From Takakia lepidozioides (taxonomy: Eukaryota > Plantae > Bryophyta), in NCBI GenBank assembly GCA_030704615.1, contig CM060731.1, forward strand, positions 33,728,001 to 33,792,000: a DNA stretch of 64,000 nt, given 5' to 3'. Positions within the stretch are counted from its first letter, which is position 1. Every line of letters begins with the position of its first letter. The notes beneath the pieces are model-generated. The model saw only the letters and a list, made by a program, of their open reading frames with translations, was not told where the DNA came from and ran no database searches. Shown one piece after another: positions 25,129 to 55,669 of the stretch. The position numbers and the translations under genes are program-made.

Positions 25129-25146
25129 TTTACCCCTTCCTCCCTC
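25129..25146 (-). promoter_or_regulatory. Polypurine tract
   Basis: Minus strand GAGGGAGGAAGGGGTAAA directly before the LTR TG. Equivalent tract at 50481-50497. Confidence 0.85.
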
Positions 25147-25167
25147 AAAAAGCCGTGTCCTCACGGT

Positions 25168-29404: not shown

Positions 29405-29688
29405 TAGGCTGTGTTGAGCTGTGACAGGCTGTGTCATACTGTGTTATGCTGTGATAGGCTGTGTTGCACTGTGGTAAGCTGTGATAGGCTGTGACACGCT
29501 GCGGTAGGTTGTGATAGGCTGTGTTGTGCCTTGCTGGGTTGTGGTTGGCTGTGTCACGTCGTGACGGGCTGTGGTAGGCTGTGGTAGGCTGTGTCACGCC
29601 GTGCTGGGCTGTGATTGGCTGTGTCACGCCGTGATGGGCTGTGATAGGCTGTGTCACGCCGTGATGGGCTGTGATAGGCTGTGTCACG
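29405..29688 (+). repeat. 27-bp tandem repeat between integrase and the extra ORF
   Basis: (GGCTGTGATAGGCTGTGTCACGCCGTGATG)-like units built on the same GGCTGTG core as the LTR repeats. Confidence 0.85.
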
Positions 29689-29799
29689 TTTGTTTTGCCC
29701 ACCCCGGCCGTATATACTGGGCCTAGCGACAAGTGTTCCATACTCCGTTCGTAACACTGGTGCAGCCCGTGACTGCTCTTGCGGTTCAACATGCAAATC

Positions 29800-30445: not shown

Positions 30446-30479
30446 TGTACGAGAACATACTTACACGATTTGGACGTCC

Positions 30480-33400: not shown

Positions 33401-36019
33401 GGAAAAGGGGACAAGAGAGAGAGAAAGAGAGAGAGACTGATGGATGGGATGGTTGTGTCTTGAGAGACCGAGGATGACTTCAAGGCTGGCCGCACTGGAT
33501 GCCTAGCAGAGTGTGCATTCACATTACATGACAGATCTGCTGCTGTGAAATAGTGGGGAACCTGGGGACATAGACAGAGATAGTGAAACAGACAAAAAGG
33601 GAAAAGAAAGAGAGAGAGTGAAAAATGGGATTTGGGTAAGGAGAGAGCTGCAATTCAAAAGGGCTGTTGGGGGGTTGGCCAATTTGGGGAGATGAGATGA
33701 AGAAAACCTGAAACCTGAAAGAAACCAGTGCCCCTGCAGACCATGAAGATCTGAGCTGCCTCCTCCTAAATCTGTGTCACCACTACAAAAAGGGGATTTC
33801 CGACCTGTCACTGCTCGAGTGGGCTTCACATAAAGGATCGTGTTTACCGCTGCCATTGGGCTGATTTGCATCACTGAATACATCGCACCAGCATAGCTGG
33901 TGCTGTACCTGCTGATAGGGGATGTTGTGTAAAAGGTAGAACCAAGAGTGAACAACAAATTGACTCCCCATCCATGTCTTCCCTTCCGCTGCGGCGTGGA
34001 TGAGGATTGCTTGAACTCTGATCACGAAGGAGCTGAGGGAAACCCACAGCCAAGTGACGATAGTTGGACAGATTAGAAAGAACGCTTCTTTCCTTTTGCT
34101 CCGCAATCAATGGAGGGGAGCACAATTAGAATTATACAGAAGGGGATTCACGCCCCTTCTTCTCACACTACAGCCTCCTTCATTGTTCTAGCATCTTTGT
34201 ACTATTTGCACAATTTACGGTGCTGAGTCTGCATCTCTGGTTTGATGTCCAACTTTGTATGTTTCTCCAAAGATTGTGTCCAATGGAATGGACATGTACG
34301 CTCTCTTCCTGACATTGTCACTTTTGGGTCGCCCGATCCGAAGACAATTCGAACAACATTGAAATTTGCTTGAGCACTATCCGCCATGAAACCTGCGCAC
34401 CCCATGGCAGCCCATAACATGGGAATTCCACATGAGCTTCTGGGATTCCGTATCCTCGGATTGCATGTCACAAACTACAATTGTTGGTACACTGGATCGT
34501 AGACATGACAAGTCATTGTTGTCCAATCTTTCACTCGTTTCACATGATCAAACATAAGAAAACAATTCTGCAAGTCCCCAGTCTTCTGCATCCGTTTCAC
34601 GAGGCTAACCCCACTGCCATCCCCAACAATCGACATTTTGAAAAGAAATACTTTGATGGCACCTTGACCTGGGAAAACATTGTCCTGGATGTAGTCGTAT
34701 TTGCTTAGTCGTTTCAATTCCAAAATATTGTCTATGTAGCCTCTAATACCAGAGCCCATTCTCAATGCATTGATCTGATGCCAAATGTTAGAAGAACTCA
34801 AAGTGGAGAAATGATCCATGACCAGGTCCAATGCTGCACCGTCAAGTTTAGTCCCCATAGAATCCCCTTCACTCAAAATATGGCTTTCCAAGAAGGACTT
34901 GATTGCGCCAAGAGCAATTGCAGATGTTGTTGCGGATGGGTTTATCTCGTACTCCTGTTTAATCAACCTCGATATTGTCTCAACACTCTCCCTGTAATCC
35001 CCCTTCGAGACAGGATGGTTATGGAAACCGAAATGCACACAAGCTCTTGTCATTGTTTTCAAACGGTGGACAACATAGTACATTCTTGCTTCGCACAGCA
35101 CCCTACAGGATGGCACAAGTTTGCAGAATTTACAAACGAAAGTGTTTGCCGGTGGAGGGGCAGTCCCAGGCTTAAATGGATTTTCCGCCACACCCTCCCA
35201 CTCGCTTTGATTATGAACCCCAGACTGAAGAAAATGTCTGCAATTCAAATTATCACACCTAAGGTGTCCATTGCAAACTGTTCTCCTGAAAACAAGCTCG
35301 TCATCATTTTGAATATTGGATGTTTTTGTTCTGCACCACGGGTGCCCGTCGTGTTTCTTGTCCATTCCATGCATCATGATTGTTACACCTCCAACTTGCG
35401 GAGGAGGAGGCAGCTCGAATAGGATATCGCCATCAAAAGTCTCTGGCAAGAACTTCACAGGCACCTGCTTCAAAGATTCCCAATCAATTCTTCGCAACTC
35501 ACTTTTGAAACCTGCCATTCCTCCCATCGCCCGTAGTTTTGGAATGACACTACAAATCTCTTCTTCATCTGCTTCTCCAACTACAGTAGGAAGGACTGGA
35601 TTTGGAATTTCACCTATGTCATCATCGGACGAATCCGAAAGCTCGACGATTGGAGTGGAGGACGTCTGTTCTTTTTTCACCACCACCTCCTTCTTGTCTT
35701 CAACGATTGAAGCAGCAGTCCCCGGCGTCACATATGATCCAAGGGACTTTTGTCGAGGCTCTGCAAGTACTCTGTATCGACCAGGCCGCACTCTCCACTG
35801 GCTGACATGAGCCGTCTCATCACGGTTTTGGAAAGAGTATTTCAACAACTTCCCTTCTAAATCGTACACCTCTTTCTCCAAAAAGATGGAGCCATTCTTA
35901 AGCTCAAACCGGGTAGCCAAGACATGTTCCAGAACAATTGCGAATCCATTGTCAAGGGCTTCATTGGAGAACGGCACTGGTTTGTCGTCAGAGAAGAACT
36001 CTGCTTCAGAGGAAACCAT
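30480..36019 (-). pseudogene. Near full-length Mutator-like transposase (GCM/WRKY-like Zn domain, DDE, SWIM), interrupted at 31987-34172
   Basis: CNGHLRCDNLNC...CKFC...HNHP; catalytic MFDHVKR, FMADSAQAN and NLAETIH; CxxH motif TCPFHW; GT-AG intron at about 31846-31730; FWFCADD; CTCPDF. The reading frame resumes across the insertion (MKEA|DTLFQ). Confidence 0.9.
31987..34172 (+). mobile_element. 2186-bp TG...CA element (solo LTR or Ginger-like), copy 2
   Basis: Termini TGTAGTGTGA / TCACACTACA. 4-bp TSD GCCT (31983-31986 and 34173-34176). Removing it restores the host transposase frame. Confidence 0.9.
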
Positions 36020-37068
36020 CTTCCCTCCTCTCGTACGAAGATGCCTTGCTATCGCAGATCTTCAGTGAAATCTGTTGACCGAGGTCTCCAGAACACTGTT
36101 GAAGAATGAGCAGAGAATATCGCTGAGAAAGCCCACACGATGATTGTGCACATTCTGTTATTCCTTCCAGACATGCAGCCGTCCATTTTAATTACTTTTT
36201 TTGTGGGCCCTGTAGACAGAGTATCCCTATGAGCAATTTCGTTAGCTGTTAAACCTTTATTCAGAACCTCATCAATAAACATAATAACCAGCCGACTTCT
36301 CGGAAGTGTGCCAAAGGATCTGAGGGTGGGATATGAGATGAAGTGAATGCATCTTTATACTACCACCAACGATCACGCGCACCTAGAAAGTCCAAACTGT
36401 GAAACGAACGTGGGGTTGGCTTACAAGGATGAATGTGTATGTGAAGTTAAATAAACACAGTGTGAAACTAACTAGAATAAAACTAGTTATTTGTATTTAA
36501 CACTTGGATTTAGTTCAAGTGTTAAGTCAGGTGTCAAATTTGAGCTTGACACCTGAACCATCTTATCTTCACGAGAGCGTCAGTCGCGCAGCTCATCTCT
36601 CTCGAGTTGAGCCTGCGCGACCGAGCTCCTTCACGCTTTAGAATTTGAGTGTGCTTATGTAGGGAGTATAGGTTGTTGTGGGGTGGAGTCCCCATAGCTT
36701 GGGGTGCCCCTGGCTCGACTATTATCTTAAAGAGTGATGCTGATGGATTTCATGTTTCTTGTGTTAAGAGTGGGTTTTCAGTTTTCTATCACTCGAGAGA
36801 GATGAGGTGTCTAGTTTGCTAGTGCTAAGCTAGATATGATGTTTTCTGTTTTTAAGCACTATTATAATATAGCTTGGTCACAGGGAGCCTGCAGTTAGAC
36901 TAGCTATGTGTGCCTAGTGGAGCAGAACAGGAAGGCGGAAACCATTTGAAGTGTTGCTGCAACGTTCAAAGCCAACAATAATCAGCCTGGGAGACAAGGA
37001 GGCCTGCCGTGCTCAGTTTATGAGGGCACTCATGCTGCAGCGCGAGAAGGACCATTGGTCGGAATTCC

Positions 37069-37384
37069 CCGTTTTGGCTAGCTGGGCTTGATTTATATTG
37101 GCGACTCGGAGGCGCTCCAAAATTTCGTTGGCAGTGGGTGCTGAGCCGTTCAGGCTATTCGTGTGTGGCTTGAATCTCACCAGCCTGCCTAGCACCTGTG
37201 TCGGGGGCTTGTTACAGCACTGCGTGTATATGCTGGGATTTTTGCAGGTGATGAGTGCCATGCCTGAGTGTTTGGTTTTCTCCATTGGGGCGATTTTACC
37301 GAAGTAGACTTGAATGATGTTATCTTTGCCGAAGGCATCCCTGAGAGCAGCTTCTGTAACCTCCTGGGAATGTAGCGGGTCCAA
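37069..37384 (-). pseudogene. RRM-like fragment, possibly LINE ORF1
   Basis: LHSQEVTEAALRDAFGKDNIIQVYFG...HSGMALITC...VLGRLVRFKPH has an RRM-like pattern. Confidence 0.4.
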
Positions 37385-37402
37385 GCTTTTTACAACAAGC
37401 AG

Positions 37403-37626
37403 GTGGGCTGGACCTGCTGTTTGGGTCTAAGAAGAAACACGAGGTTGATGTGAGCTCCACCAATGGCCACGCCAAGTTGACAGTTGGAATGCTGCTGGTT
37501 TGGATTCGTGACAATCTGCTCAAGGAGAGGCCAGGTGTGCTAGTATTGATCAACGACTGTGACTGGGAACTTTGTGGGTCTCTTGAGGCCATCTTGAAAG
37601 ACAAGGACAGTGTGACATTCATTTCC
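37403..37626 (+). pseudogene. URM1: Ubiquitin-related modifier 1 fragment
   Basis: cag|GGLDLLF...LTVGMLLVWIRDNLLKERPGVLVLINDCDWELCGSL...KDSVTFIS. Lacks the start, the E(M/L)F..GD.VRP segment and the C-terminal TLHGG. Confidence 0.9.
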
Positions 37627-37845
37627 AGGTGACGGACGTGAGAGAGGAGCGGCCGGGCAGGGACCTCGGGGTCATCAAATGGAATGAAATGTCGAGCAAG
37701 TGCTCTCATCCCAAGCGGTGCCCGTGACTACTGCACTATGAACTCTCTTCGTCCTCTAGCAAAAACAGGAGTGACATGGGAGGTGCTACCCCTGACGCCA
37801 GTTGGATGTTCAGCAAACGACTGTGCCTGATTCAATGCTTCCACC

Positions 37846-38149
37846 CTCGTCAATTGCCTGCTGAAAGCACCCAGCAGCTTTCTTGAAAAAATTGTTGGCC
37901 TTGTCAATCTTGTTCACCAAAAATCACTGGGACGTGTAGGCATTACCAATGCACCAGAGTGTATCATGCAACGTGAAGAGCTTCCTCCAGCTTTGACACC
38001 ACATCTACAACCCCCAATATCGTCCAAGACCTCCAGAGATAGAAGGAGCGCATTCCATCAGTGGGGGAGCGAATATAGTCAACAGTTTCCTTCTCACGGG
38101 TCTGCTCAAAGAACATAAGCCACTCAAGCTCCTCCCCTTGCATTTCCAT
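37846..38149 (-). pseudogene. TOM20: Plant TOM20 fragments (two exons)
   Basis: MEMQGEELEWLMFFEQTREK..VDYIRSPTD and ag|VVSKLEEALHV/HDTLWCIGNAYTSQ*FL...ANNFFKKAAGCFQQAIDE. Confidence 0.88.
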
Positions 38150-38475
38150 GTCAAACCTGTGTCGGCACACGAGCACGCACAACTCACGCCAGAGTAGTGC
38201 TGGATCAGAAGGTGGCTACAGAGATGCGAATTAGACCAATTTGATGGAACTTCAAGCTGGTCTTGGCCTTGGATTTCATCCAAAGACGGCCACATTACAG
38301 CATGCCACTATCAGTCCATAAGAAGAAGAAGAGCTGAAGGACATGTGGAAATGCCTTGAGACTATGTCGGAGATCATCAATCTTGGATGCGCTTAAGCCC
38401 AGGCGCTCGAGCTCTGCCGTTGTCCCCAATTCGGTGATGAAGGGCAATTCGTATCGCACGCGTGCTGCTCCAGGG

Positions 38476-40133
38476 TGTGATACCCCATCTATAACTGAGG
38501 TCGAGTCTTGGAGTTGGAGAGCTCTTGGTGCCTGGAGAAGCCTGGAGGGGAATGGCCTCGGGAACCCGTAGATAACCTGGGAACAGTTTTTAATGGCGAG
38601 AACGTTTTGATGTTAAATTTAAAAAAAAAAAAAAACCTTTTTGATCTAATTTAAATGATTTAGAGCCTAATTGGTCATATCTTTGTCAAATGGACTCTGC
38701 TTGACTCAGTTTTTGAGGGGATAACTGCAGAAAGGGGAAATCTACCTATCTCGACCTGGTTTTAGTTTTTTGGACTCTGCTAAAAATCTATGGAATTTTT
38801 AGAGTGTGAGTGTGCCATGAAAGATCCACAATTCTGTTTCTAGAACTTGTTCTGGTCTATATGAGAGACAAATCTGTGGATGTCCTCCTTGTATGGCTGG
38901 AGGAAATGAGGACGTAATTGAAGGGCAGGTCTCTTCTCTTAGCCTGTGCACCCAAGGGGACAAGATTTATGTTTCTCAAGGAACTCAGACTGATTTGAGT
39001 GGAGAACAGTTGGACGAGTTGATTGCATACTGGGAGTCAGGCATTAGCAGTAGACAACAAACTGTTGTAGTTGGCGTTGAGGGACTCAATATCGCTTTGG
39101 ACAGTCAGAACTCTGTTGGAGCCAGCAGTTCTGCAGCTGTAAGTGAAATACCAAAGTGGGTGAAAGCTAGGCTTGGGACACAGCCAAAGACAGCCCCGGG
39201 GACCAAGGTGTTCAGCCACAAGGCCGTGGTGTACTGGAGCGGAGGAGCAGGAGCTACACAAGTTTGTGCAATCAAACATGGTTGCAGCCGGAGACGCTCT
39301 ACACAAGGCAACCATGAGCGGGGGTTCATTAGCAATGACAAGTTTGTTCTGCGTGAAGGAGATGCAGTCATTCGCAATGAGGACACCCGCAACCGTCTCA
39401 AAGCTTTCGAGTTGAGAGACTATCAGACCCTACCTTTGTTTTCTTTAGTGTTCAGTGAGCGGGAGATAAGGGAGTATTGCTTTGTCTCTACCTGGCAGAA
39501 AGAGGAGGAGGGTTGGTTAGAGCGAGCTACTGTAGTTGGGACAAGGTTAGTGGCAGGTTTCTGGACATAGATATATCTCCTACACCTTACCATCCTGCAG
39601 AGCGAGGCACTTTGAGAGAAGTCTGGTAGTTGATAGCATAGATCAGGATTAGATCTTGCTTGATCGGGCTTCTATTCTTCCCCTCCCTCTCTTTACTATT
39701 TTCATTACTTTGTACTTGTAGTTGCCAAAGCCTCTCTTGGTGGAGGCCAGTCAGTCCGGGGTTTTGGGCTGGGATATTCTGCAGAAGCGGCATTGCAGAT
39801 GGATTTTGGTGTGGGGGTGTTGATGTTTTGATTTCTTGTGTTTGGATCCCCACCAAACCTGCATGTTTGACTGTGCGCCATGTTGGTTTTGTGTGGGCGC
39901 TTGCTTTCATAGGGATTAGGCCGGATTTGATCACCGGTCAATCCTAGAGTATGCTGTCGGTGGTGAGGCTGGAGTGATGACCAGCAAGACCACCAGTGTT
40001 TCTTCTATGGTGAGACTGGGTTGATGACCAGCCAACCATAGGAGTTCTTGCGGTGGATGCAGGTGCAGGTGCCCTGAGCCATTGGGATATGACCCTTAAA
40101 CTGCAACAGGTGCCCACCCGTGTCACTATTAGA
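38476..40133 (+). repeat. Putative 5' LTR (~1.66 kb)
   Basis: Starts TGTGATACCCC and ends TATTAGA (degenerate TATCACA) 2 nt before the PBS. Confidence 0.6.
38893..39570 (+). CDS. 225-aa ORF of unknown function inside the putative LTR
   Basis: ATG-initiated, uninterrupted, protein-like composition. No family recognised. Confidence 0.5.
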   Translation: MAGGNEDVIEGQVSSLSLCTQGDKIYVSQGTQTDLSGEQLDELIAYWESGISSRQQTVVVGVEGLNIALDSQNSVGASSSAAVSEIPKWVKARLGTQPKTAPGTKVFSHKAVVYWSGGAGATQVCAIKHGCSRRRSTQGNHERGFISNDKFVLREGDAVIRNEDTRNRLKAFELRDYQTLPLFSLVFSEREIREYCFVSTWQKEEEGWLERATVVGTRLVAGFWT

Positions 40134-40135
40134 AT

Positions 40136-40148
40136 TAGTATTAGAGCC
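40136..40148 (+). promoter_or_regulatory. tRNA-iMet primer-binding site (degenerate)
   Basis: TAGTATTAGAGCC is TGGTATCAGAGCC with two transitions, directly upstream of gag. Confidence 0.75.
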
Positions 40149-40160
40149 TTATAGTGTCAC

Positions 40161-41834
40161 GTGGAGGAGGTGCACATTGTGAGTGTCATCACGGAGTTAC
40201 CCAAGGGTTTTGAGGGGAGTACGGCTACAGGCAGTAACAGTGAGAGTGGGTTCACAAGACGAGGTATTCGGTTCAGACCACCTTCACCACCACCCTCAAC
40301 TACTGTAGAGTCTGACACAGACCCGGAGGCTTCATCCACAAGTGTGCAGTTTTCTTCGCCATTGTTGTGGGACGACATGGAGGAGATGTATGGAGCTATC
40401 AAGGGGCCTCGTAGGTACTCTGGAGCTGTGGGAACAATCGAGATGGATGACTTTATCCAGGAGTTCGACAGCTGGTGTGATTTGCAGCAGATGCGCAATC
40501 CACAGCTGTTCACCCCATTCATGGCGTGGAAGGGATTGTTCCAACATTTGGAAGGCCCGCCTATGGACGATTACCACGAGTTCAGGCAAGGACATGAAGC
40601 AAAAATTGAAGAGTGGAGGATGTATTGGTCACCTGACTACGTCTCCATTACTCGAGGAACAACGCGACCAGTAGCGGCATCAGCACCCATACCTCCCACG
40701 GCTAGCACTAGTAGTGGAACAAGTAGTGCCAGTACTTCTGTAGAAGGTGCTACTACCCATCCTCCCACGACTACAACACATGTGCCTAGATTCAGCCCGG
40801 TGGTGGAGTTCTTCTAGGAGTTGCGGAGGAACTACCAACGTGTACGGACTGAGAAGCTGCGAAGTTTGCAAGACTTCCAGCGCAAACCCAGTGAGAGCCT
40901 GCGAGAGGCGTACACTCGTATGAGGCGCTTGATAAGTGTGACCCAAGGGGTTACTGAAGCTCAGGCAATCCAGTTTTGGTATGGAATTCTGGACAAGGAG
41001 CTCAAGAGAAGGGTGCGAGATGCAACCCTGTTATAAGCAGCCCAACCCACATTAGCAGATGTGTTTCTGCTGGCTGAGCGGATTGAGCTCAACATGGTGG
41101 AGGAGCGAGTTGTTACCATTGGATTTGGCAAGGACATGCCTGCACGGGGCACAGCTGTCAGCCCACAGGCACAAGGGACTGCCCAACATCGTGGTGAGGG
41201 GGGCAAGGTTGCCTAGCCCAAGTTCCATGGAGCTTACAAGGGACCTCAAGTGCAGAGGCCCGTGGCATCTTTTGCAGGCCAACAGCAACCAGGGGTGATA
41301 TGTTGGACATGTGGACGACCCCATGTCAAGAGAGATTGCCCAGAGAGTGGCAGAAGGCCGGCACAAGCACAGCCTGCACAGTTGCAGTGTGGGCATTGTG
41401 GCAAGTATGGGCATGGAGATGCCCAGTGTTATGACTTGCATCCTGAGTTGCGCCCAGGCCAGTTCTAAGGGAACAATGGTGGCCGGGGGCGAGGTGGACC
41501 AGCCCAGAGAGGACGAGGTGGTTGGGCACGAGGTGCAGGCCAAGGGCAAGCTCAACATGGCCAAAGACGCGGAGGTCAGGGTGTTGACCAAGGCATGGCC
41601 AACCGGCTTCAGCAGCTAGAGCAGAGGCTCGCTGCCATGGCTACAGCTCAGGTGGTACCGGCTCCCAGGCGGGATGGTCCACCTCCTGCTCCTGAGGGAG
41701 AAGATATGGGAGGCATGGGATTCATGTGCGGAGCAGCACTACCACTAGTGCAGGTGGAGTCTGCTGCAGCCGTGACTCGAGGTGCAGCACAAGTTCCTGA
41801 GCCACGAGGTGTAGAGGTGGAATTGGATCCATAG
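40161..41834 (+). pseudogene. gag with two zinc knuckles; single frame with in-frame stops
   Basis: RYSG...DDFIQEFDSW; FQRKPSESLREAYTRMRRL; CWTCGRPHVKRDC and CGHCGKYGHGDAQC; RGG-rich tail. Confidence 0.88.
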
Positions 41835-42289
41835 CGTGGGGAGGCAAAGCCGTCAGGCGAGGCTTCCTCAGTCATTCACATTGGCGGAGACAGTGTCGAC
41901 GCCATCCATGGCACCTAATTCTCGCCCGACTATTACCGAGACGGAGGTTACTATGCCATTGGGGAGAGCTACACGTGCAGCACTGACACCTGCTACCAAG
42001 GCTAGTACAGCCGGTGTGTTATTGGGGGCAGCCACCTCTGTGTGTCAAGCCCCACTGTTCTCGGCAACCATGATTACGACGCCGGGGGTAAGACCAGCTG
42101 CAGTGTTCAGACTAGCAGCAACACTCTGCGAGAGTGGGGAGGTCACTTCATCTTCTGCGGAGTTACTGGAAGGTGTAGTGGTAGAGGGATCCTCGGATTT
42201 GAGGGTCAAGACTGCCATGGCTGCGCCATGGCAAGCTGCAGCTGCCAGGTTGACGGAGCAGCCAGCTAGGCCAGCCTTTGAGCACGCCA

Positions 42290-42710
42290 TGGTGACACCT
42301 GGAGTTGTCTTGTTAGACAACCAGGGAGGCATTTTCACTTTGAATGGACCGGCAGGCAAGAAGTACCGGCCACTGCGGGTCTTATTGGACTCAGGAGCTC
42401 AGCCACTGATGTTGGGCAGAGCTGCTATTGCAGGTCTGGGCCTCATGGAGGTGGATATGGAGCCTTGTCCTTTCCAGATTCAGACATCTCTGGGAGGATC
42501 AAAGCAGGCTCGGGGCATGACATGGCGTGAGTTGGCCATTGGACTACAACCAGATCATCCTGTAGATGGCTCAGTGATGCGAGCCAAGGCCATTGTGACA
42601 AACGCGGTCTCTTACAATGTCATTGTTGGTGGGGCAGTGTTATATCCCATGGGCTTCACCCTGGACTTTTGGGAGGAGTCAGCATCCTACAGGCCTGGAT
42701 GGCAGTCAGG
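42290..42710 (+). pseudogene. Retropepsin aspartic protease domain
   Basis: RVLLDSGAQPLML active site and YNVIVGGAVL substrate-binding motif. Confidence 0.85.
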
Positions 42711-43101
42711 GGATGGTCGTTGTGCACAGCTCCCTGTGACATTCATTGGGGGTATTGCGGCTGCCCAGCGGGGCAAGATGCCAATACTAGTCGCTTTTAC
42801 AGCTGCAGTTAGTTGGCCTGGAGAGTTGCTGGAAGGCAATGCCCATGCAGAGGATGTGCCACCTCCAGGAGAGCAGGATGACATGCATGGTATGGCGGAA
42901 TTGCCTGCCATGGTTGCTCACACTCCATTATGGGGTACGAGCAAGGATTCGCAGCAGGCTGTTGATGGACGGGTACAACAAGCCTGGGTAGAGGCCTTCG
43001 TACCATCAGGAGAAGAGGAGAGTGCGGTGATTGCACCAGGACCACCTCAGTTGTTGCCATTGGACACCACACCTCTTGTGTGGCAGTGCCCGGATGAAGG
43101 C

Positions 43102-44040
43102 ACATGCCTTCTGGACTTGTTTGGCGGGATCAGCACTGGATTGGCTGCAGTACTGCAGGCAGGTATACGAGTTTGACGTTACCTGTATGTGGAGAGGGAT
43201 GAGACTGCACGACTTGTCTCACTGTGCCATGTTGCTCAGTTTGTACTGCAGTACCCTGATTTGTTGTCAGTGTCTGCAGTTCGTGGATACCAACAAGCCT
43301 TGCCAGCAGACATTTCGTTGCTGGGGGCGCAGGATTTGGAGCGGGTTGGCTCCATTGATCTGGTAGTGGCAGGTTGGCCCTGCCAAGGGCATTCATCAGC
43401 CAAGCATGGCAATGGATTGCGAGACTCGAGGACGGGTCTGTTTTGGGAGATGGTGCGGATTTTGCGCCACTTGCAGCTTCATCAAGCTGTATCTCCTACA
43501 TACATCTTGGAGAATGTGCCATTGATGGGTGATTCTCGGGCCAGGGTGATGGCCAGTGTGCATCAAGTCCGGTCGTGGCTTGGGTCAGCAGTGTTGCTGG
43601 ATGCAGCTGCAGTGGGGTCATGGGCTCATCGTCCACGGCTATGGCGGTCTAACTTGATGCCACCCGCACTGCTCAAGCATGCATTTGATGGGGTGCAGTG
43701 GCCAGCACACCTCACAATGGATAGCATTTTGGACACAGGGAGGCAGTCTCAACGTGTGAGACACGATGACCGTTCGCCTTTGGCAGTGGTCAACAGGGTG
43801 GGTCAACCACAAGTAGCATTACCTACACTGCTCAGCTTCCCAGGATCCCATGCTTTTCGGGATGGTGGACCTGGCCTCTTGTGGGATAGCCAGTTGCAAC
43901 AATTAGTGGAGCCCAATGCTGACGAGCGCGAGCGGGCGATGGGTTTTACCACAGGTACCACGGCGGTGCCATCTCTTTCTGAGGCATCACGTCGTCAGGT
44001 GTTGGGGCAAGCAATGGATCTCAATTGCTTGACCTGGATT
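43102..44040 (+). pseudogene. C5 cytosine DNA methyltransferase domain within pol (one internal TGA)
   Basis: Motif I LDLFGGIS, II YVERD, III ADIS, IV DLVVAGWPCQG, VI YILENVP, VIII AHRPRLW, IX ERERAMGF, X RQVLGQAM. Same frame as the protease ORF (41836) and the RT N-terminus (44407). Confidence 0.95.
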
Positions 44041-44406
44041 ATCAGCTTGGCTATGGCTGAGCAGCGCAGAGTACGGAGTACACTTCCCTTCATGGTCTCC
44101 CTGCCTACCAAGACGGTACAGGCAGCAGGTGGGGGCGAGCAGGTGAGGACCACGAGGTGCAGGCCGCATCCATGGCACACGTGGGAGGTGCTCGAGGTTC
44201 AGAAGGAGTTGGCAGCCAAGGCGGCGGTGATGGAAAGGGTTGGGGATTTTTCTCGGATTGAGGAGATCCTCAAGGATAGGATAATGGGGCAGGATGAGAC
44301 ATTGTCACTGACAGAGGAGGCAGTGGTCACTGCTCAAGAGGTTGCAACATAGCAACCACGGGACGCGTCTTCTACCTCTAAGCCTGCTGGACTCAAGGTT
44401 GCAGTC

Positions 44407-46235
44407 ATGGAGGACAACTGGGAGCCTGATGTTGGACCTATAGTCACCGGAGGAGAGAGACGACGTATACGGCAGTTCTTGAGGGCTTACAAGAACTGCT
44501 TTGCCTTCAGTTTGAAGGACTTAGGAGCACTGAAGGGTCAAGAGATTCGCATTGAATTGGCTACTGACACGCCAATCTTTCGGAGACCCTATAGATACAG
44601 TGACATGGAGAGGTCCTTGATTTTCAGATGAGAACTTAGGACCTTTGGGAGGCTGGTTTGGTGGAGCTATCTGGGGGAGAGTATGCTTCAGCCACAGTGA
44701 TGCCAGCCAAGAAGGATGTCTTTGGCAATTGGATGGAGAGACGTATGTGCGGTGATTACCGGCCTGTAAATCGTCAGACCAAGTCCGATAGGTATGCCAT
44801 GCCAACACCAGAGGAGATCTTTGATGTCATTGGGCATGCCAAGGTCTTTAGCACGTTGGATTTACGATCCGGATATCACCAGTTGCCGATCAAGGAGGCG
44901 GATAAGCAAAAGACAGCATTCTGGGGGATCAATGAGCACGGGAAGGATTGCCTATACCAGTGGCGGTTCTTACCATTTGGACTTAAAAATGCTCCCGCTG
45001 AGTTTCAAAGAGTCATGGACAGGATTCTAGTAGGGGTGGAGTTTGCTCGGTGCTACATAGATGACATCATCATCTTTAGTGCTACGGTGGAGGAGCATGA
45101 GAGACACCTTCAGGGGGTATTTGAGCGCTTGAGGGCGCACGGATTGAAGTTACATCCGGGAAAATGCAAGTTTTTCCACAACCAGATTGAGTATCTGGGT
45201 CACATGATATATCCTGGCGGATTGGGGGTACAACAGACTAAGGTAGAGTCCATTGCACAGGTTCCACACCCCACGGATGTGAGCCGAGTTCGAGCTTTCA
45301 TGGGGTTAGCAAACTATTATAGACGGTTTGTTAAGGGATTTAGTGTCATTGCAAAGGCTCTAACCAAGCTGACCAAGGTGGACCAGGAGTGGCAGTGGGA
45401 AGATGAGCAAGAACAAGTTTTTCAAGAGCTCAAGGCGAGGTTGACCTCGGCGCCCATCTTGAGACGACCTATCAGGGGGCGTCCTTTTCAGCTGCATACA
45501 GATTGGAGCATGCTGGGGCTTGGAGCAGTGCTCACACAGGTGGTTGATGAGGGAAGAGAGTTCGTAGTGGCTTATGCTAGCCGCTCGAACAACGTTGCAG
45601 AGTCTAAGTATAGCTCAAATGAGGGAGAATGCTTAGCTGCAGTGTGGGCCGTGGCACACTTCAGGTGCTATCTATACGGCAATCTCTTCACCCTTGTCAC
45701 GGATCACCAACCACTCAAGTGGTTGATGGAGTCAGACAAGCTTACGGGGAAGCTTGCATAACCGTGCCCGTTGTGTTGGGTGAGGCACAATCCTCACTCA
45801 ACCATCCTCCCACACTCGGAGCAGGTGTGTCCCTTCCCACTTGAACCTCTTGGCTCGTTGTAGGATCCGATCCCTCTCCTTGGCAGTCACAGTGGCTGCA
45901 GTGTCTCCAGTGCGGAGGTAGTCCAACACAACTGAATCCTCATGTATATCTTTGGCGTCACCTTGCTCATTGCTGGCCTCAGGGTCCTTAGACACTTGAT
46001 CTACAGTCATCCCTGTTGCAGGTCCAACCTGTCCTTCCGCTGCCAAGATACACAGAAATGCAGATGCATGCCATCCGGGCACCATCTCCTTGTCCGTCTC
46101 ACCATGCCACCGAGCTCCAGTGTCATCCTGTTGGCTCGTGCATGGATTGCGACTCAACCCATCTGCATTGCAATTGACCAAACCCGGTCGATGCACCACC
46201 TGAAAGTCATACTCTTGAAGGATGAGTGCCCACCG
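44407..46235 (+). pseudogene. Reverse transcriptase and RNase H; last 477 bp inverted
   Basis: RMCGDYRPVN, FSTLDLRSGYHQ, LPFGLKNAPAEFQR, YIDD, LHTDWS, TDHQPLKWL. Confidence 0.96.
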
Positions 46236-47315
46236 TGCGGCATGCCAATGAGGAGTTGGGGCATTTTGGGGTGCGACGCACTCATAGTCTACTGCAAGGG
46301 CAGTATTGGTGGCGTGGTATGCACACAAAGGTGCAACAATTTGTGGCTAAGTGCATGGTGTGTGATAGGGTGCGTGCTTCATTCAACGCCCCTACTCCAC
46401 AATTGCACCCTCTTCCGATCATGGGATTGGGCTACAGGTGGAGTCTTGACTTCGCAGGGCCGTTGCCACTGACCATGCGCCACAACAAGTACGTGTTGGT
46501 GATGGTGGAGCACTTCTCCAAGTGGATTGAATTGGTTCCATTGCCTGATAAGGCTAGTGAGGGAGCTGCGTATGCATTCTTGGATTGTGTGCTTAGCCGA
46601 TTCGGTGCTCCAGCTGAGGTACTCACGGACCAAGGGAGAGAGTTCTTGGGGGAGTTTCAGGCTTTGTGTGACAAGGCCTTGATAGACCACCGCACCACTT
46701 TTTGGGATTATCCTGAGGCCGATGGCTTGGCAGAGAGAGTTGTTCAGACAGTAAAGAGGGGTTTGCGCAAGAATGGCTTGCAGAAGGGACACCTAGGAGA
46801 TTGGGACCTTTCAGTTATCCTGGTTAGCCATGGGCTACAGGTTCAGCAAGCAAGCATCATTTGCCTCCTTCTCACCATACTTTCTTCTCTTTGGCCGAGA
46901 GCCGGATTTGCCTACATCCACTCGCAGAGAAGCTGCTACAGTTCTTAACCTTGACGATCCGGACGTGTGGGCACGTGCATGTGAGCAGGTGCAGAGTTGT
47001 TCAAGAAAGTCATGCCCATGGCTTTCGAGAACCTTGCCATTGCACAACATCGTGATACGTTGAGGTATGCTACCATACGTGGTGGGGGCTATCGTCCCGG
47101 GGTTCGGAGATTCAACCCTGGTGACTATGTCTATCTGCAGCAGACTGCTCCTACAACATTGGATGTGACTGCAGGACGTGTTATTTTGAGGGTTCGAGAG
47201 GTTTTGCCCTCAGGCGTCTTGGTCTTGGAGGGTCGGGATGGCATAACTTGGAAGGACCATGTGCGTAATTGTGCGCCATGTCACCTTCCGAATGTCGATG
47301 GCAGGATTGACCCAA
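46236..47315 (+). pseudogene. Integrase (HHCC plus DDE), frameshifted and truncated
   Basis: LGHFG...CMVCDR, WSLDFAGP, LTDQGREF, GLAERVVQT, FSPYFLLFGR. Ends at PCHLPNVDGRIDP. Confidence 0.93.
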
Positions 47316-47850
47316 ACCATTGTGGCAGACTACTTTATTGTGCATATATGTGTGGTGTGGTTTGGACAACGATGTAGTTGTGTAGCGATATGTATGCGCA
47401 CGACATGTATGATATCCAAAAGTTTGTCATCAAACACTCGTTCATTTACATTTATTTGTCTAAAATTGTGCGCTAGATGGCCCCATATTTTCTATTCCAC
47501 GGTGCCAAGGTTTTGATGGCATAGGCATTGTCTGAGGCTGAGCAGTCAGACCAGTTAATTGTTTATATGCAATGTGGCATTCATCTATAATATATGTCGC
47601 TGTTATTTTCAATTATTGAAACCGTTCAAATAAACGACACACGTCAGACATCGATAACTACATTGCAGACGAACAGCTGTCCACTAATGGCTGGCAGGTG
47701 CACTAATAAGGGAACGACATTTGTGTAACGGTCACGCGAGAGGGAGTCCGATGCTTCTAGAGACAATCCCCAACGCACGCAACTCTGCAAGAAATCAAGA
47801 GTCACTTTGTCTTTCTAGTTTCCGCACTTAGAGGGAGAGAGGTAGTCAAG

Positions 47851-48243
47851 ATGGAGAGGGTTCTTTCTACGATACGAAAGAGAAGGAAGTCACTTTATTT
47901 TACTTCCCTTAGAGAGAGACTCAGAGCAATGGAGCAAATGACAAGGCGTCGTTTGATGGAGAACACAGGGCCAAGATAGCAGGTGAACACGGAGATTGCA
48001 ACACAAGAGCAGACCGAGAATGAGGCTGTAGTTGTCACACAGTCAGAGATAACAGTGAGCGTTGGAAACCAGACTGTGGAAGCAGAGCTAATTCGCAGGG
48101 AAACTAAAGGAGGTGGAAGTCCATGGAACGCTGAACCGGGAGAAGGTCAACAAACCCTAGAGCAAACAGAAATTCCAACAGATGTGAGAGGGAAGAGGAA
48201 AGCTGCAGAAGAGGATCCAAATTCAAAACCTAAGAAGGCGCCA
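47851..48243 (+). pseudogene. First-exon-like, acidic/basic low-complexity coding remnant, probably a DNA-transposon accessory gene
   Basis: ATG at 47851, one internal stop, NLS-like RGKRKA...KPKKAP, then donor GTAAGT. Confidence 0.3.
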
Positions 48244-48311
48244 GTAAGTGTTCTCTACCTTCCATTTCCTGTTTACAGATCTACGAAGAGAGTGAGTGCA
48301 ATGTCCTAGAA

Positions 48312-49090
48312 AGTGATGGTCGGTACCGACCATCACTATGAAGCCATGTTGATTTGCTTTGTACTCCTCTGTTTATGGTTTTCCACACCAACAGTTTGTG
48401 ACTGGCGGTACCGCCATTCACTGTTCTTCATATCATAGAGTTAGTCTGATTGCCTTTCAAGCACTCATTCTCTTTCATTCTGTAGCAAGAACCTGTGATT
48501 GTCGGCAACGTCATTCTCTTTCTTTTCAAAACTTTCATTCTGATACAACAGAAAGTGAGTGTCGGTGCCGAAAGTAACTATGATCCAGTATTGATTTACA
48601 TCAAACGCAATGCATTCCATTCTAGTGTAGTGCGAGTGTCATTAACGCCATTCGATTCTCCTCATGAGCTTGCGGTACCGCCAATCACTTTTTTTGAGAC
48701 CATACTGTAGATTCATGTAGAGAATCGATTGCAAAGTACATTCGAGACAGATAAGAAACAGTGATTGTTTGTGACGATCATCACAATGAAGTCTCTTTGA
48801 CTTATCTGCACTCACTTTCTGCCCTAAACTAGAGTGAGTGTCGGTGCCGCCAATCACTAAGACATATATTTCATTGCACCAAACCGATCCAATAGGTCCT
48901 TCAAATGCAATGTTTTTTTATTGTCGTTAACGCCGTTCGCTAATGCTCAAAACCTTTCTGTACCTGTTTGCCGACCATGACTATGTAGTCATATTGTTTT
49001 GGTTTGCATTCGTCTGGATCAGCTTTGCTTGCGTAGATCGTTCTGAATTTCGGTGAGACGAGACAAACTGATGGTGGGTACCGACGTTCA
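48312..49090. repeat. Dispersed array of ~24-bp palindromes
   Basis: Perfect 26-bp palindrome AGTGATGGTCGGTACCGACCATCACT at 48312-48337, with variants near 48398, 48495, 48555, 48665, 48834 and 49069. Confidence 0.75.
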
Positions 49091-49152
49091 ATATTTGCAC
49101 AAAACTCACTGTCTGATTGGCATGGCATCGTGCAGAAAACTGTGAAGTCCAA

Positions 49153-49638
49153 CACTACTACAGATTAACGTTTTTATGTCTACGGGTGATATAAACCTTG
49201 GTAATCATGACTATATGTGTGACTACGAAGTGATGAAACCCATTGTTGGGCGAATTTTAATATATTTTTATCTAATGTAGTCATACGTTTTACTACATGA
49301 CTAGGAGACGCGGTCAAACAGTGTGAACATAGGCTTGGTTTATATAACTCGTAGTCATACGCAATACTACACGTCAGACACATGCCACGTAAGCTTATGA
49401 CTACATGACTACTGGAGGTTTCACATCTCTGTTTCTATGATTACATCACTACACGTGGCATCTTAAGGCATATACATGAATGGGTTCATCTATTGGATGA
49501 CCTCACCCATCTATCTTTAACGAAGCACTTGTCATATGTGACCATGTGTCCATTTGATATTGGCAAAATATTGGACCTGGAGCTCGAAGCAGTTTGCAGT
49601 TTCAGTATGTAGTGGCGTGGGCAAATATCACGAAGTAG
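49153..49638 (+). mobile_element. CACTA (En/Spm) terminus, interrupted by an LTR
   Basis: CACTACTACAGA followed by direct and inverted ATGACTAC/GTAGTCAT subterminal repeats. Confidence 0.75.
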
Positions 49639-50480
49639 TGTCGAGTGGCTTTTACTCACCCATCCCTTCGCTATCCGAGATGGAAACTCCAAGATAGAAG
49701 AGTTGGATATCTCTAAGCACTCAGCCCGCTCAGAACAATCAGTCATGACCTGCAGCTAGTGAATCATGGTTGTGCTTCCTATTTGTATTCCTTCTTGCCT
49801 TCATGTTATCAATTTACCTTACCGTGTATACTGAAGCATCAGATTGCTTCAGTATCTACTTAAGTTCCAATTAATCATGCATTCATTCCACAGCTTCTCT
49901 CGTGTCTCTCTACACAGTAGGTTTGCATCGATTCAGTATCGGATTAGGATTAATCATGTATCATGCCTATGCCATGGTGTCTCTAATCTACCCTATTGTA
50001 TAATTCTACAGCTTGCATGAATTAAGCCTCAATCAAGTCATCATCTCCCCTTCACTATTTCCGATCTCCGTTACGTCTCCTCCTCAAGAAGTGATCCTCC
50101 AGAAGCCCCCTTCCTATTGCCGCCCTGCCTAATCTACCCGCAAGCTGTTCTAACCACCTAACTAACTAACCGTCACCCCTGAAGTAACACGTTCCCTCTG
50201 CAGATGTCGTTCCCACACAGTCGTTCCTTGTCAATGATAACTGTTCCTTATGTACTGTGATAGGCTGTGTCAAGCTGTGCCGAGCTGTGACTGGCTGTGC
50301 GAAGCTGTGTCGGGCTGTGACTGGATGTGTGAAGCTGTGTCGGGCTGTGACTGGCTGTCTAACCCCCCTAAAGCCTGCGCCTGCCACCCCTAAGGCTCCT
50401 GTTGGTCTCCGTCTACGCAAAAATTAAGGGTACCCCACAGAACCCGTAAAAGTGTCTAAGTCCCAAGCAGCCCTCTAACA
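49639..50480 (-). mobile_element. 3' LTR (842 bp) of a second Athila/Tat-like copy
   Basis: Minus strand TGTTAGAG...CTCGACA, PPT at 50481-50497, colinear with 24148-25128 but with fewer internal repeats. Confidence 0.88.
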
Positions 50481-50518
50481 TTACCCCTCCCCCTCTCAAA
50501 AAGCCGTGTCCTCACGGT

Positions 50519-52577
50519 TTACTGTTTGGGATCAGCAAACCTTTGTGAGCGAGCACCCTTCTGTCGGTGAGAGTCTCGTGAAGGACTGCGTGTGCATGCC
50601 CGAGTCTTGTCACTGGCTGATGGAGATGATTGAGCACTACGTGGAAATGTTTGACCCTCCTTTGGCTGATAAGGAGGTAACCTCTCAGGCATAGGAGATC
50701 CCCGTCGTTTTTTATCCGCCATTGCTAATTCATACTCATCCGCCATGTCAAAATCGCCCTCCACTGAATCAGTAGTATCAGAATCATCATTACCCCTGCG
50801 GCCTTTCGGTGGTCTGATCTTCTTGGGCGTCTCAGGAATCCTACGTGGCATACAGTGTTGGCCCACCATGTCTGGAAGTTTAAACTTTACGACTTGTTGT
50901 AAGCGCATGCAAGCAAAATGAGTGTACTCCCTGAATTCTTTGTCCGTATAGGTGAGAGGTGTGCCAATGACCTTAGAACAGTGTAAGTATTTCCAGGCTT
51001 CCTGTCCCTTATAAAAAATATCGTCAGGGCCCAATTTTTCTTTGGCCAAGTTGTTCCAAGCCAAATTAAACCATGAACGAAGTTGGGAATCCTTCTGCAA
51101 CATGACTTTTGCATCATATAGGTACATATGAGGTGGAACTGAAGGTAAGACCCAATGATCCCCACTGGAATAACTCAGAAATTGTGATTGCATCTTCTGC
51201 TGCTCAATGTGATAACGTGCCATAAAACAAGCAGCATAGTATAATCCACAGCCCGTGACAATACTAGATACCTCCTTGGTCTTGGTATAGATGTACCCAT
51301 GTACAACCTGGAAGGCAATTAATTCCTTCAGCATGGTACCTGCCTCAGATCAGTACCTTGCAAAGTGATGATCCTCAATGGGTCGATTGTTCAGAAGAAC
51401 CTTAGTCCGAGTTGCCACTGGCAACCAAATGCGCATGATCTGGTAGTAGTGTGCCAACGACTGCGGAGGACTAAATTCCTTCCAAGCCAAATCCAACACA
51501 ATGGGAATTTGATTGAAGGGCATAATCATAGCCCGACTGTACTCCCGTGCAGTAGGTAAGTGGGTTAAAAGCAACATCCCCCCATACCTCAGGTTGTGGT
51601 TTGTCTGTAGTAGTAATAGGGTCAGCTACCTGCACAGGCACCTACTGTGGTATTGGTACCACTGGCCCTTCTACCACTGGCATCTCCTGCACCCCCTGTG
51701 AAGAAGATTGAAAAATTAGAGTCCTGGCCTGTAAATAAGTAGCCATCAGCTGCTCCTCAGGAACCAAGACTCTCTTGTCAATATTTGAACTCAGGTCATC
51801 CACTTGAGTCTGCAGGCCTTCCACATCCTCCTGTAGCTCCGCTATCCTACTATAGACATTGTCTATAGTAATTGTGGCAATGTTCTGCACCTGCAATCTG
51901 AGCTCATTCATCTCGCCCTGGGTGAGCTTCATTGGTGCTTTGCCTTCTACCGGCCCTTGTGTTAACCAGACCTGCATAAGGTGGTTATCCACCAAGTCCT
52001 GTGTGGCACCCCTGAAAGTCTGCTCCTCCGTGAGTGTGTACACATCTAACTGCTGTTGTAAAGCCTCCATGCGCTTCGCATGAGGTTCAACTAGGCCCGC
52101 ATAGGTAGCAGCCAGATTATTGGCTTCCTTGTAAGCCTTGTTAGCCACAGAGAATTTATTTCTATTGACCATGACTATTTGTTGCAACTCCAGGATATAC
52201 CTCTCATGGTCAGCCTCAACCTGTCTGTATTGTTTGAAAGTATTCTCATTGCGACAGATTGTATCCTTCATATCAACAATGAGTTTCCTTTGCTCTATTA
52301 TCTCAGCTTCTGCCCTCATACATCTCTCCCCTTGTCTGTTAACTTCTAATGCAGTTTGCTCTAGAACAATTGTGAGTGTAGCACATTGTATGGTCATCTT
52401 CTGATGTACTGCCTCCAACTCTGTATGTAGTACATTCACCTCTTGCAACTTGCCCTCATGCTTCACCTGCAATTGGTATAACTGTTGCTTATGTGCTTCA
52501 TGCAACTGGTCCTGCTCGAGACCTGCTTCAATCAAATGTCCCTTAGCCAACTGCAATGCAGCCTTTGTGTCCTCCAA
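50519..52577 (-). pseudogene. Second copy of the extra ORF (C-terminal ~700 aa), disrupted, cut by the gap
   Basis: Colinear with 25168-27230 (WLTQGPVEGKAP, AREYSRAMIMPFNQIP, GDHWVLPSVPPHMYLYD). Confidence 0.9.
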
Positions 52578-53077
52578 NNNNNNNNNNNNNNNNNNNNNNN
52601 NNNNNNNNNNNNNNNNNNNNNNNNNNNNNNNNNNNNNNNNNNNNNNNNNNNNNNNNNNNNNNNNNNNNNNNNNNNNNNNNNNNNNNNNNNNNNNNNNNNN
52701 NNNNNNNNNNNNNNNNNNNNNNNNNNNNNNNNNNNNNNNNNNNNNNNNNNNNNNNNNNNNNNNNNNNNNNNNNNNNNNNNNNNNNNNNNNNNNNNNNNNN
52801 NNNNNNNNNNNNNNNNNNNNNNNNNNNNNNNNNNNNNNNNNNNNNNNNNNNNNNNNNNNNNNNNNNNNNNNNNNNNNNNNNNNNNNNNNNNNNNNNNNNN
52901 NNNNNNNNNNNNNNNNNNNNNNNNNNNNNNNNNNNNNNNNNNNNNNNNNNNNNNNNNNNNNNNNNNNNNNNNNNNNNNNNNNNNNNNNNNNNNNNNNNNN
53001 NNNNNNNNNNNNNNNNNNNNNNNNNNNNNNNNNNNNNNNNNNNNNNNNNNNNNNNNNNNNNNNNNNNNNNNNNNNNN
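52578..53077. other. Assembly gap (500 N)
   Basis: Run of N. Confidence 1.
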
Positions 53078-53335
53078 CAAGGGGCACGGGTGAAGTGTAT
53101 CAAATCTGCAGCCAGGGAGTGTGTAAACAACCAACTCACCTAATTATAAGTGCCTGTCGATCAAATTCATTGGCAAGAAAACTATCATGCACAGTTCGAG
53201 TGGTCTTTGATTCAGAGAGGTCGGCTCACCACCTGCAATCGGTGGGTGTTCAAAGAGGCCGGCTCACCACTTGCAACATACTTGTGCCACCACCTGCCAC
53301 ATATCAGAGTTATCACAACGTGTGTCACAACTTAG

Positions 53336-55332: not shown

Positions 55333-55443
55333 TTTGTGCTACCTTATTCACCCTATTCTCCCTTAGCACATGTACACCTAGAAACAGAGTGGATACATCT
55401 CCCTTGTCACACGTCAAACAATTGGCAAGCAGATCCACCCTGT

Positions 55444-55669
55444 ATTTTGCTTCAGCTTCAGAAGGACCTGCCGCATGCGGCCTAAATCATAGGTTTTCCA
55501 AGCTTGGGACCCTTGTTGGCCTCCACACCAATTTTTCTGTCCTTAGATCTTTGCCGCGACCCTTCACCTATAGCAATCCTGACAGTTCATTGGGAAGCAG
55601 TTGTGCCATTGCCTTCCAGTATGCCTTGTCTGTACTTTTGTGGAAGTTCTCTTGATTTGCTGGAAAAAC
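55444..55669 (-). pseudogene. CLC: Clathrin light chain exon fragment
   Basis: cag|VF.ANQENFHKSTDKAYWKAMAQLLPNE...GPKLGKP/GRMRQVLLKLKQN matches plant CLC (ANQEKFHKEADK.YWKAIAELIP.E...GPKPGKPTDLSRMRQ.L.KLK). Confidence 0.85.

Follow-up and report, generated by a model that had tools for sequence, protein, structure and literature searches.

The stretch of DNA analysed here, called the window, comprises 64,000 nucleotides (nt) of the bryophyte Takakia lepidozioides (assembly GCA_030704615.1, contig CM060731.1, positions 33,728,001 to 33,792,000 of the forward strand), and positions given without a locus name count from its first letter. On its plus strand lies a decayed copy of a Ty3/gypsy retrotransposon carrying a C5 cytosine DNA methyltransferase (DNMT) domain (43090..44067) between the protease (PR) and the reverse transcriptase (RT). 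Three-frame translation and Pfam searches show the element, which runs from the Gag start at 40377 to the 3' terminus at 47405. Its parts are as follows, with L-names standing for loci of relatives, P-names for relative proteins and ORF for open reading frame:

40377..41834, plus strand: Gag region of ORF1, with ATG at 40377 and CCHC knuckles; 63% to the Gag of Marchantia P0003
42277..42747, plus strand: aspartic protease of ORF1 (LLDSGAQ); 55% to the PR of P0003
43090..44067, plus strand: DNMT3-like C5 methyltransferase with all catalytic motifs and one decay stop at 43174
44068..44349, plus strand: poorly conserved C-terminal linker of ORF1
44350..44358, plus strand: conserved ORF1 stop, TAG CAA CCA (CAR-YYA context), predicted readthrough site
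44353..45758, plus strand: RT and RNase H of ORF2, in frame past the stop, with a frameshift near 44625
45781..46238, minus strand: internal inversion of about 460 nt, holding the RNase H end and the spacer before the integrase; 68% to L007 in reverse
46226..47315, plus strand: integrase (H2C2 zinc finger, DDE core, C-terminal part)
47338..47405, plus strand: remnant of the B terminal repeat, 68 nt, ending in CACGACA, the 3' terminus of the family

Pfam recognizes the RT (RVT_1, E 4.8e-32), RNase H (RT_RNaseH_2, E 4.3e-31) and integrase (rve, E 9.2e-14), and scores Gag (Retrotrans_gag, E 0.0035; zf-CCHC, E 0.076) and protease (Asp_protease_2, E 0.0024) under the cut-off. The B remnant is 76% over 67 nt to the B2 repeat of L040 (E 1.3e-6) and 74% to that of L030. 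The window copy is a dead retrotransposon. Gag holds five decay stops (40815, 41034, 41214, 41466, 41832) and is followed by a frameshift near 41845, the integrase has two frameshifts, the inversion is marked by a minus-strand ORF at 45798-46346, and the PHD finger, polypurine tract and inner repeats are gone. No pair of long terminal repeats (LTR) or 5' A repeat was found in the window, and no Rfam match in 36000-50000. The initial annotation had drawn the element too short, at 41836-45761, and had understated the damage, leaving aside the Gag stops, the frameshifts, the inversion and the loss of the PHD region. Its statement that the DNMT is in frame with the protease and the RT N-terminus is right as to the shared frame, which includes the LLDSGAQ motif, but the frame is not continuously open, as the TAG at 44350-44352 lies in between. 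Similarly, the single in-frame stop it reported, TGA 43174, is indeed decay, and the TAG is a second stop that it did not mention.

The DNMT domain matches PF00145 with E 2e-11 and 44.4 bits (cut-off 22). The motifs I, II, IV, VI, VIII, IX and X stand in canonical order with a complete catalytic set, as first annotated, at the following positions:

43120, plus strand: motif I, FGG
43192, plus strand: motif II, E
43378-43383, plus strand: motif IV, PC
43510, plus strand: motif VI, EN
43630/43636, plus strand: motif VIII, R-x-R
43930, plus strand: motif IX, E
44005, plus strand: motif X, G

The labels I to X are those we take these residues to have. Among solved structures the best match by sequence is DNMT3A (E 2.9e-9), followed by DNMT3B (2.5e-6), the entry 4onj (1.9e-4) and M.HhaI (4e-3). 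The 4onj entry is a 357-amino-acid (aa) "DNA methyltransferase", presumably tobacco DRM2. The AlphaFold model of the domain has a mean confidence (pLDDT) of 95.3, and its best fold match is again DNMT3A (Foldseek E 1.4e-19, template modeling score 0.73/0.83). Sequence matches and the modelled fold support a DNMT3-like, unpermuted enzyme, which agrees with the initial annotation; this likeness is drawn from best matches and fold, the trees described below having been built without host DNMT3 sequences. A host DNMT3, DRM, CMT or MET1 gene is ruled out, as the domain is intronless, canonical in motif order and set within a retroelement frame. The annotated lack of a DRM-type permutation and of the BAH or chromo inserts of MET1 and CMT holds on the same grounds.

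The methyltransferase is not confined to the window copy. In run X1, from the same species, 18,852 contigs lie on 42900-44800 at 80% or more, a figure that reflects a large family and is not a copy number. A metagenome search confirmed at least 309 relatives, of which 80 loci were compared together with L111 (81 in all). Tblastn mapping finds the order Gag-PR-DNMT-RT-RNase H (RH)-integrase (INT) in every listed locus with a long enough contig; neither the one-off insertion nor the nesting in a host gene that the initial annotation had named as refutations is seen. The DNMT query returned 66 longer proteins, headed by Calypogeia fissa and Marchantia polymorpha (59-71% identity), and Sphagnum gene models are 48-55% identical to the window DNMT. 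Five Marchantia gene models of 1278-1281 aa consist of Gag, protease motif and DNMT, and end 97 aa past motif X. A full HMMER search gave 183 clusters at E 1e-30 or better. DNMT precedes RT in Klebsormidium nitens GAQ93235 (P0194) and in two Closterium proteins, and follows RNase H or directly precedes integrase in proteins of Scenedesmus, Cymbomonas, Monoraphidium and Pseudoscourfieldia.

In a quick DNMT tree (71 rows, with the Shimodaira-Hasegawa-like approximate likelihood-ratio test, SH-aLRT, as only support) all rows with the order PR-DNMT-RT form one clade (99), including Klebsormidium and Closterium, and the window falls in a clade of 12 rows (100) with Calypogeia, Marchantia and Sphagnum-like loci, the latter reaching 86% likeness to named Sphagnum proteins. 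In an RT tree of 22 rows the window is sister to liverwort and Sphagnum-like elements (bootstrap 100, SH-aLRT 99), its RT being 81% identical to that of Marchantia; the two trees are concordant. These comparisons support the methyltransferase as a trait of the whole retrotransposon family, present in embryophytes. The initial annotation had proposed both this persistence in land plants, now borne out by named Marchantia, Calypogeia and Sphagnum proteins, and the kinship with Klebsormidium elements, with which the DNMT tree and the terminal repeats agree.

The catalytic cysteine is kept in 70 of 71 aligned DNMT domains and the glutamate of ENV in all 71. The ratio of nonsynonymous to synonymous substitutions (dN/dS), a check proposed with the initial annotation, is 0.05-0.12 between open relatives (L027/L034 and L027/L111; the pair L034/L111 is saturated) and 0.16-0.93 among decayed copies of one subfamily. 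Between the window and Sphagnum-like loci the proportions of changed sites in the DNMT are 0.17-0.23 (nonsynonymous) and 0.71-0.78 (synonymous, near saturation). Judged by substitution pattern, the DNMT of the family is shown to be under purifying selection. TGA 43174 is regarded as decay of the window copy because most of the family depth in run X1 reads another base there (244,162/281,607, 87%). Compared with the species majority, 21 of 26 transition-type differences of the window copy lie in CG or CHG context, a bias which fits ordinary host methylation.

The second stop behaves differently: TAG 44350 is a conserved feature of the family and not decay. Among 572 contigs of run X1 on 44310-44420 no base differs at 2% or more at 44348-44358, while seven positions near the stop vary at 2-80%, and runs X5, X7 and X9 agree on the stop. 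Of the 81 loci, 61 contain the end of the DNMT as well as the start of RT (35 closer and 26 more distant). In 29 of the 35 closer relatives a stop followed by CAR-YY-N stands 30-100 nt ahead of the conserved beginning of RT, and in 28 of these it shares the RT frame; in the 26 distant loci, which form a sister clade, it occurs in none, and the linker is fully open in 14. The hexamer is CAACCA in the window and CAACCC (23), CAATCA (3), CAGTTA (2) or CAACCT (1) in the relatives, so that the full six-base CAR-YYA is matched by the window and five relatives and five of the six bases by 24. The second codon of the hexamer alternates between Pro, Ser and Leu with YY kept, and the flanking peptides diverge; because residues and flanks change while CAR-YY stays, the constraint at the stop acts on the RNA. 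No CAR-YY context follows any of the six decay stops that precede it in the window copy. The stop maps, as one change, to one branch of the RT tree (bootstrap 100, SH-aLRT 99).

The reading frames of relatives agree with such a boundary. Full-length relatives of the window clade end 70-165 aa past motif X, which suggested a natural end of ORF1 there. ORF2 (RT-RH-INT-PHD) begins directly after the stop and stays open for 1047 codons in L027, L034 and L111; in L027 ORF1 is open as well, over 1369 codons. CAR-YYA is the sole readthrough signal of tobacco mosaic virus (PMC2194720), and in a plant reporter it gave 32% readthrough, lost on a change of the +1 C (PMC2754532; both as given in the parts of these papers available). 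No conserved RNA fold was found 3' of the stop (z +1.0 to -3.3, with one of five junctions better than shuffles). From these comparisons the DNMT ends the Gag-PR frame, and RT-RNase H-integrase-PHD is likely reached by stop-codon readthrough.

Translation of ORF1 would then give a Gag-PR-DNMT precursor ending at TAG-CAACCA, to which occasional readthrough would add RT, RNase H, integrase and PHD. As much DNMT as Gag would be produced and likely packaged, whereupon the protease would free the enzyme inside the particle and it would methylate new complementary DNA (cDNA) before integration, which might shield the cDNA from host surveillance or preset its chromatin. On the whole, a dead copy of a high-copy Gypsy-DNMT3 family with a leaky TAG-CAACCA and a DNMT at Gag level, methylating new cDNA, is probably the right description. 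That the protease releases the enzyme in the particle and that its task is to methylate cDNA is only slightly more probable than not, and CG as the target context, by analogy with DNMT3A and the dinoflagellate SymbioDIRS-Dnmt3, has an even chance. Because it is encoded upstream of any throttle, the DNMT should match Gag in amount in stop-bearing and open clades alike. Abundance would be in keeping with a slow enzyme of the DNMT3 type, and it equally allows action in trans.

Several observations weigh against this description. The hexamer is CAACCC or CAACCT, one base off consensus, in 24 of the 29 relatives, and nearly all of these have an in-frame ATG immediately past it; early in-frame methionines follow the stop also in the window (residue 19) and in L034 (residue 14), so that reinitiation is possible in those subfamilies. 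The motif is absent in six of the 35 closer relatives (L021, L024, L032, L057, L072, L079), in which the linkers are deleted or decayed. Many loci come from few related assemblies and amount to about 4-5 subfamilies as independent units, and Marchantia and Calypogeia are known at the stop from proteins alone and not from DNA. Since the sister clade thrives with a single open frame, the stop is dispensable for the lifestyle. None of the listed public runs with the element is recorded as RNA, which has no bearing on expression. The observed-to-expected ratio of CpG is 0.48 in the element, 0.46 in the other gypsy element of the window and 0.55 in the flanks, a similar depletion that leaves no footprint separating self-methylation from methylation by the host. 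The Klebsormidium DNMT gave no methylation of yeast DNA, a result called inconclusive by its authors (PMC5890265, available parts).

Among other explanations, one that is unlikely but best withstands the data keeps the architecture and the readthrough and lets the protease-released DNMT act in the nucleus in trans, on other copies or host chromatin, for self-limitation or for silencing competitors. The fusion of the DNMT to Gag speaks against it, and Gag of LTR elements assembles around the element RNA; moreover ORF1 has no chromatin-reader domain, the PHD finger being on the integrase. Still, Gag-level DNMT would far exceed the need of one 9-kb cDNA, and the stop uncouples DNMT from RT, which removes the argument made in 2018 that an enzyme in the same ORF as RT acts in cis; a host benefit through slowed transposition is raised in the discussion of PMC5890265.

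Somewhat less likely again is that ORF2 comes from reinitiation at a nearby ATG, or from splicing out of the stop as in Ogre, rather than from readthrough. Reinitiation draws on the ATG past the hexamer in the Sphagnum-like group and on the early methionines noted above, but in L027 and L111 the first methionine of ORF2 is residue 117, inside RT, so that no whole RT could arise there in this way. In Ogre an intron separating Gag-PR from RT-RH-INT is spliced out (PMC6317226, available parts), and three gene models (P0005, P0007, P0045) join DNMT to RT; their joins, however, lie at three different places, and the family has a single in-frame stop with the frame kept and no stop-rich intron. Weak evidence in the same direction is that no joint across the stop appears in four runs, one of them guessed to be RNA. 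Conservation of the CAR-YY hexamer argues against both routes.

An improbable reading is that the domain binds or methylates element RNA or an RNA:DNA hybrid and not double-stranded DNA. The failure of the Klebsormidium domain to methylate DNA in yeast would be in line with it, as would Gag-level amounts, which suit an RNA-coating protein, and RNA methylation was raised for the enzyme of a long interspersed element (LINE) in the available parts of PMC5890265; human DNMT3B, however, also failed in the same yeast assay (same source), and in sequence and fold the domain is closest to DNMT3A and DNMT3B, which act on DNA. A one-off insertion of a host DNMT3 fragment or an assembly chimera, with TAG 44350 as plain decay, could appeal to the heavy decay of the copy and to the several other stops that are also TAG, and is refuted, with next to no probability left, by the thousands of contigs of one run on the DNMT-RT stretch, the same order in dozens of loci and named proteins, the agreement of RT and DNMT trees and the invariance of the stop.

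Among retroelements, SIRE1 reportedly uses readthrough between pol and env. The predicted site resembles Type I sites of tobamoviruses (UAG-CAR-YYA) in its identical six-base context, single in-frame stop and lack of a conserved downstream fold, and differs in standing after Gag-PR-DNMT and before the RT of a gypsy element. The capture of a DNMT as such is already published: Gypsy-Dnmt3 elements of K. nitens carry it in the frame of RT and RNase H (de Mendoza et al., 2018; PMC5890265). As far as the available parts of that paper go, the KnitGypsy-Dnmt3 elements share with the present family the Gypsy domains in the order PR-RT-RH-INT, a DNMT3-like domain without introns or permutation, split direct repeats in the DIRS-like layout A-ORFs-B-A-B, and purifying selection. 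In GAQ93235, which is assumed to be one of the named KnitGypsy-Dnmt3 copies, the DNMT follows Gag and a region resembling a protease; identity is 36%, and the DNMT tree places it in the clade of the present family (SH-aLRT 99). By sequence, the published kind reaches liverworts and mosses. PMC5890265 describes the DNMT of those elements as lying in the RT ORF, whereas the DNMT of the window clade is the last domain of the Gag-PR frame, closed by a conserved stop of readthrough type. The features given for KnitGypsy-Dnmt3 in the available parts of the paper do not include target duplications, a CA-NN-TG junction or a missing primer site (below). DNMT and RT do not share an open frame in the window clade and do so in sister clades (L049 group, P0332, P0334, P0349, P0362). 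P0194 and three relatives end 12-13 aa past the DNMT and may have a similar break.

SymbioDIRS-Dnmt3 is the only retroelement-borne DNMT3 shown to methylate CG de novo and the source of the idea of cDNA methylation (PMC5890265, available parts). It belongs to the dinoflagellate DIRS order, whereas the window family has a DDE integrase and 4-bp target duplications; no family match to the tyrosine recombinase of DIRS/Ngaro was found, and the window and L027 have an rve integrase instead. Ogre and other two-ORF plant gypsy elements have their break likewise between Gag-PR and RT-RH-INT, with a spacer of ~274 bp spliced as an intron in Ogre, as against the single in-frame stop and the DNMT added to ORF1 here (PMC6317226, available parts). 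EpiLTRs of Cymbomonas and Euglena are also LTR retroelements with a cytosine methyltransferase, which is DNMT4-related and accompanied by DAM and a chromodomain, and their authors separate them from streptophyte Gypsy-DNMT3 (10.64898/2026.05.21.726589, available parts). The available parts of this work and of PMC12344493 place such elements in "streptophytes" and name no land plant; one supplement of PMC12344493 gave no match on land-plant hosts, and Marchantia is absent from the three supplements of PMC5890265 searched. The available parts of PMC6453930, 10.1101/363937, PMC10952607, PMC11982613, PMC11244446 and PMC6317226 do not mention a bryophyte Gypsy-DNMT3, and the word "methyltransferase" is absent from the last, a plant gypsy survey. 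A literature search covering few subscription journals gave no paper on a land-plant Gypsy-DNMT3, its readthrough stop, or split-repeat gypsy elements. What is new, as far as this literature goes, is that a conserved stop of readthrough type couples the DNMT to Gag.

The ends of the family are unusual. Self-comparison of long loci reveals split direct repeats, A1-ORFs-B1-A2-B2, complete in L040, L045, L049 and L055 and partial in L001, L030 and L062. Elements start with TGTCAYG and end with CAYGACA, and 4-bp target duplications were found in L030, L040, L049, L055 and L062 among 13 loci examined, with L045 unscored and the others lacking one end. The five elements with both ends are:

L040:3782-12991
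L049:3547-12861
L055:3184-12853
L030:1679-10805
L062:3759-12712

A G-rich (polypurine) tract directly precedes B1, and the B1/A2 junction CAYGACA-NN-TRTCAY occurs in 13 loci, on the 3' side only and never upstream. No tRNA primer site (TGG-type) is evident behind A1 in 7/7 loci inspected by eye. The TG...CA termini and 4-5 bp target duplications of LTR elements are present in relatives; the 5' end holds A only, so the canonical layout of two full LTRs is not realized. These ends suggest that integration may go through a circle which the DDE integrase opens at the internal CA-NN-TG junction, the case for this being evenly balanced. Rather doubtful, and offered tentatively, is the whole combination: an old retrotransposon group of the green lineage, with ORF1 still open in Marchantia copies, that loads its particles with a de novo DNMT3 at capsid stoichiometry by way of a viral-type leaky stop, methylates its cDNA before integration and inserts it from a circular, tRNA-independent intermediate through the DDE integrase acting at CA-NN-TG. 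If true, it would mean a transposon-encoded route of de novo methylation in land plants and a replication cycle that mixes DIRS and LTR features.

What use a cytosine methyltransferase is to a retrotransposon has been asked since 2018, and part of the difficulty is that the hosts (Symbiodinium, Klebsormidium) are awkward to work with. Marchantia polymorpha is a genetic model with methylation mutants, and its full-length Gag-PR-DNMT models (Mp4g09160, Mp5g06330, Mp5g06860, MpVg00370, MpVg00540) make the question testable in a land plant. From the conserved stop one would expect as much DNMT as Gag, and far more of it than of RT or integrase; the stop also takes away the ground on which action in cis was assumed in print. 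Such copies can be miscounted as host DNMT genes, and their ends would escape LTR finders.

A second clade (most of L041-L080; DNMT identity 33-40%) has no stop between DNMT and RT, and its contigs belong to the series that also yielded the Sphagnum-like clade with the stop; next to one of its members, L049, is a pentatricopeptide repeat (PPR) gene with a DYW end. A sister type with the order RT-RH-DNMT-INT-PHD is complete in 30 of 150 listed representatives and partial in about 39 more. The named members of this type, P0053, P0059 and P0168 (Scenedesmus), P0348 (Cymbomonas), P0353 (Pseudoscourfieldia) and P0355 (Monoraphidium), are chlorophytes, which implies that the capture is old and that the DNMT has moved within the polyprotein. 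Some of these proteins have an extra C-terminal stretch with a DPWAGTG...SPWF pattern, which in P0053 we take to be amino-methyltransferase-like. Chlorophytes are not among the hosts given for these elements in the available parts of PMC5890265.

Among viral contigs, 30 loci gave methyltransferase matches, all of them short and distant. Prokaryote genomes yielded four remote matches in Streptomyces and, at 48%, the complete element L111. Its contig (CADCWO010000201.1), apparently a collapsed tandem or a circle, is filed in a cyanobacterial genome bin, but the open Gypsy-DNMT3 element on it most likely comes from contaminating eukaryotic DNA. Positions 39920-39949 of the window hold a leader motif of 30 nt that is identical to L111:8501-8530 at 29 of 30 positions and absent from other loci.

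Upstream of Gag by about 800 nt, an open frame of 249 codons (38821-39567, plus strand) matches nothing in Pfam, the PDB or the relatives, and its single-sequence fold is poor; a weak Atlas lead points to 2OG-Fe(II) oxygenases (0.84-0.86). A cluster of intronless host-gene fragments at 37360-38612 looks like capture by a transposon. It includes URM1 (PF09138, E 3e-20, internally deleted), a short piece at 37813-37923 (minus strand) which we take to be plant TOM20-like, and a further fragment at 38298-38612 (minus strand). Another gypsy-like element is present in two copies (24148-30480 and 49639-53099; 74-88% identical), with a coiled-coil-like ORF of 1109 aa that matches no Pfam family, a frame resembling an integrase, and tandem repeats of 10 nt. 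Other decayed transposons lie at 34475-36061, 23431-23973, 9272-10724 and ~54000-55500 on the minus strand and at 21995-23079 on the plus strand; the pieces include a GCM/MULE-like frame (Atlas leads under 0.9), a DDE_1 transposase (PF03184, E 1.5e-10), a LINE-like ORF1 with a CCHC knuckle and a presumably SWIM-like piece. The only candidate host gene seen consists of two short frames about 300 nt apart at 63178-63848 (plus strand), which have no Pfam match at E 0.01 and which we take to be exons of a plant Nudix hydrolase 14-like gene.

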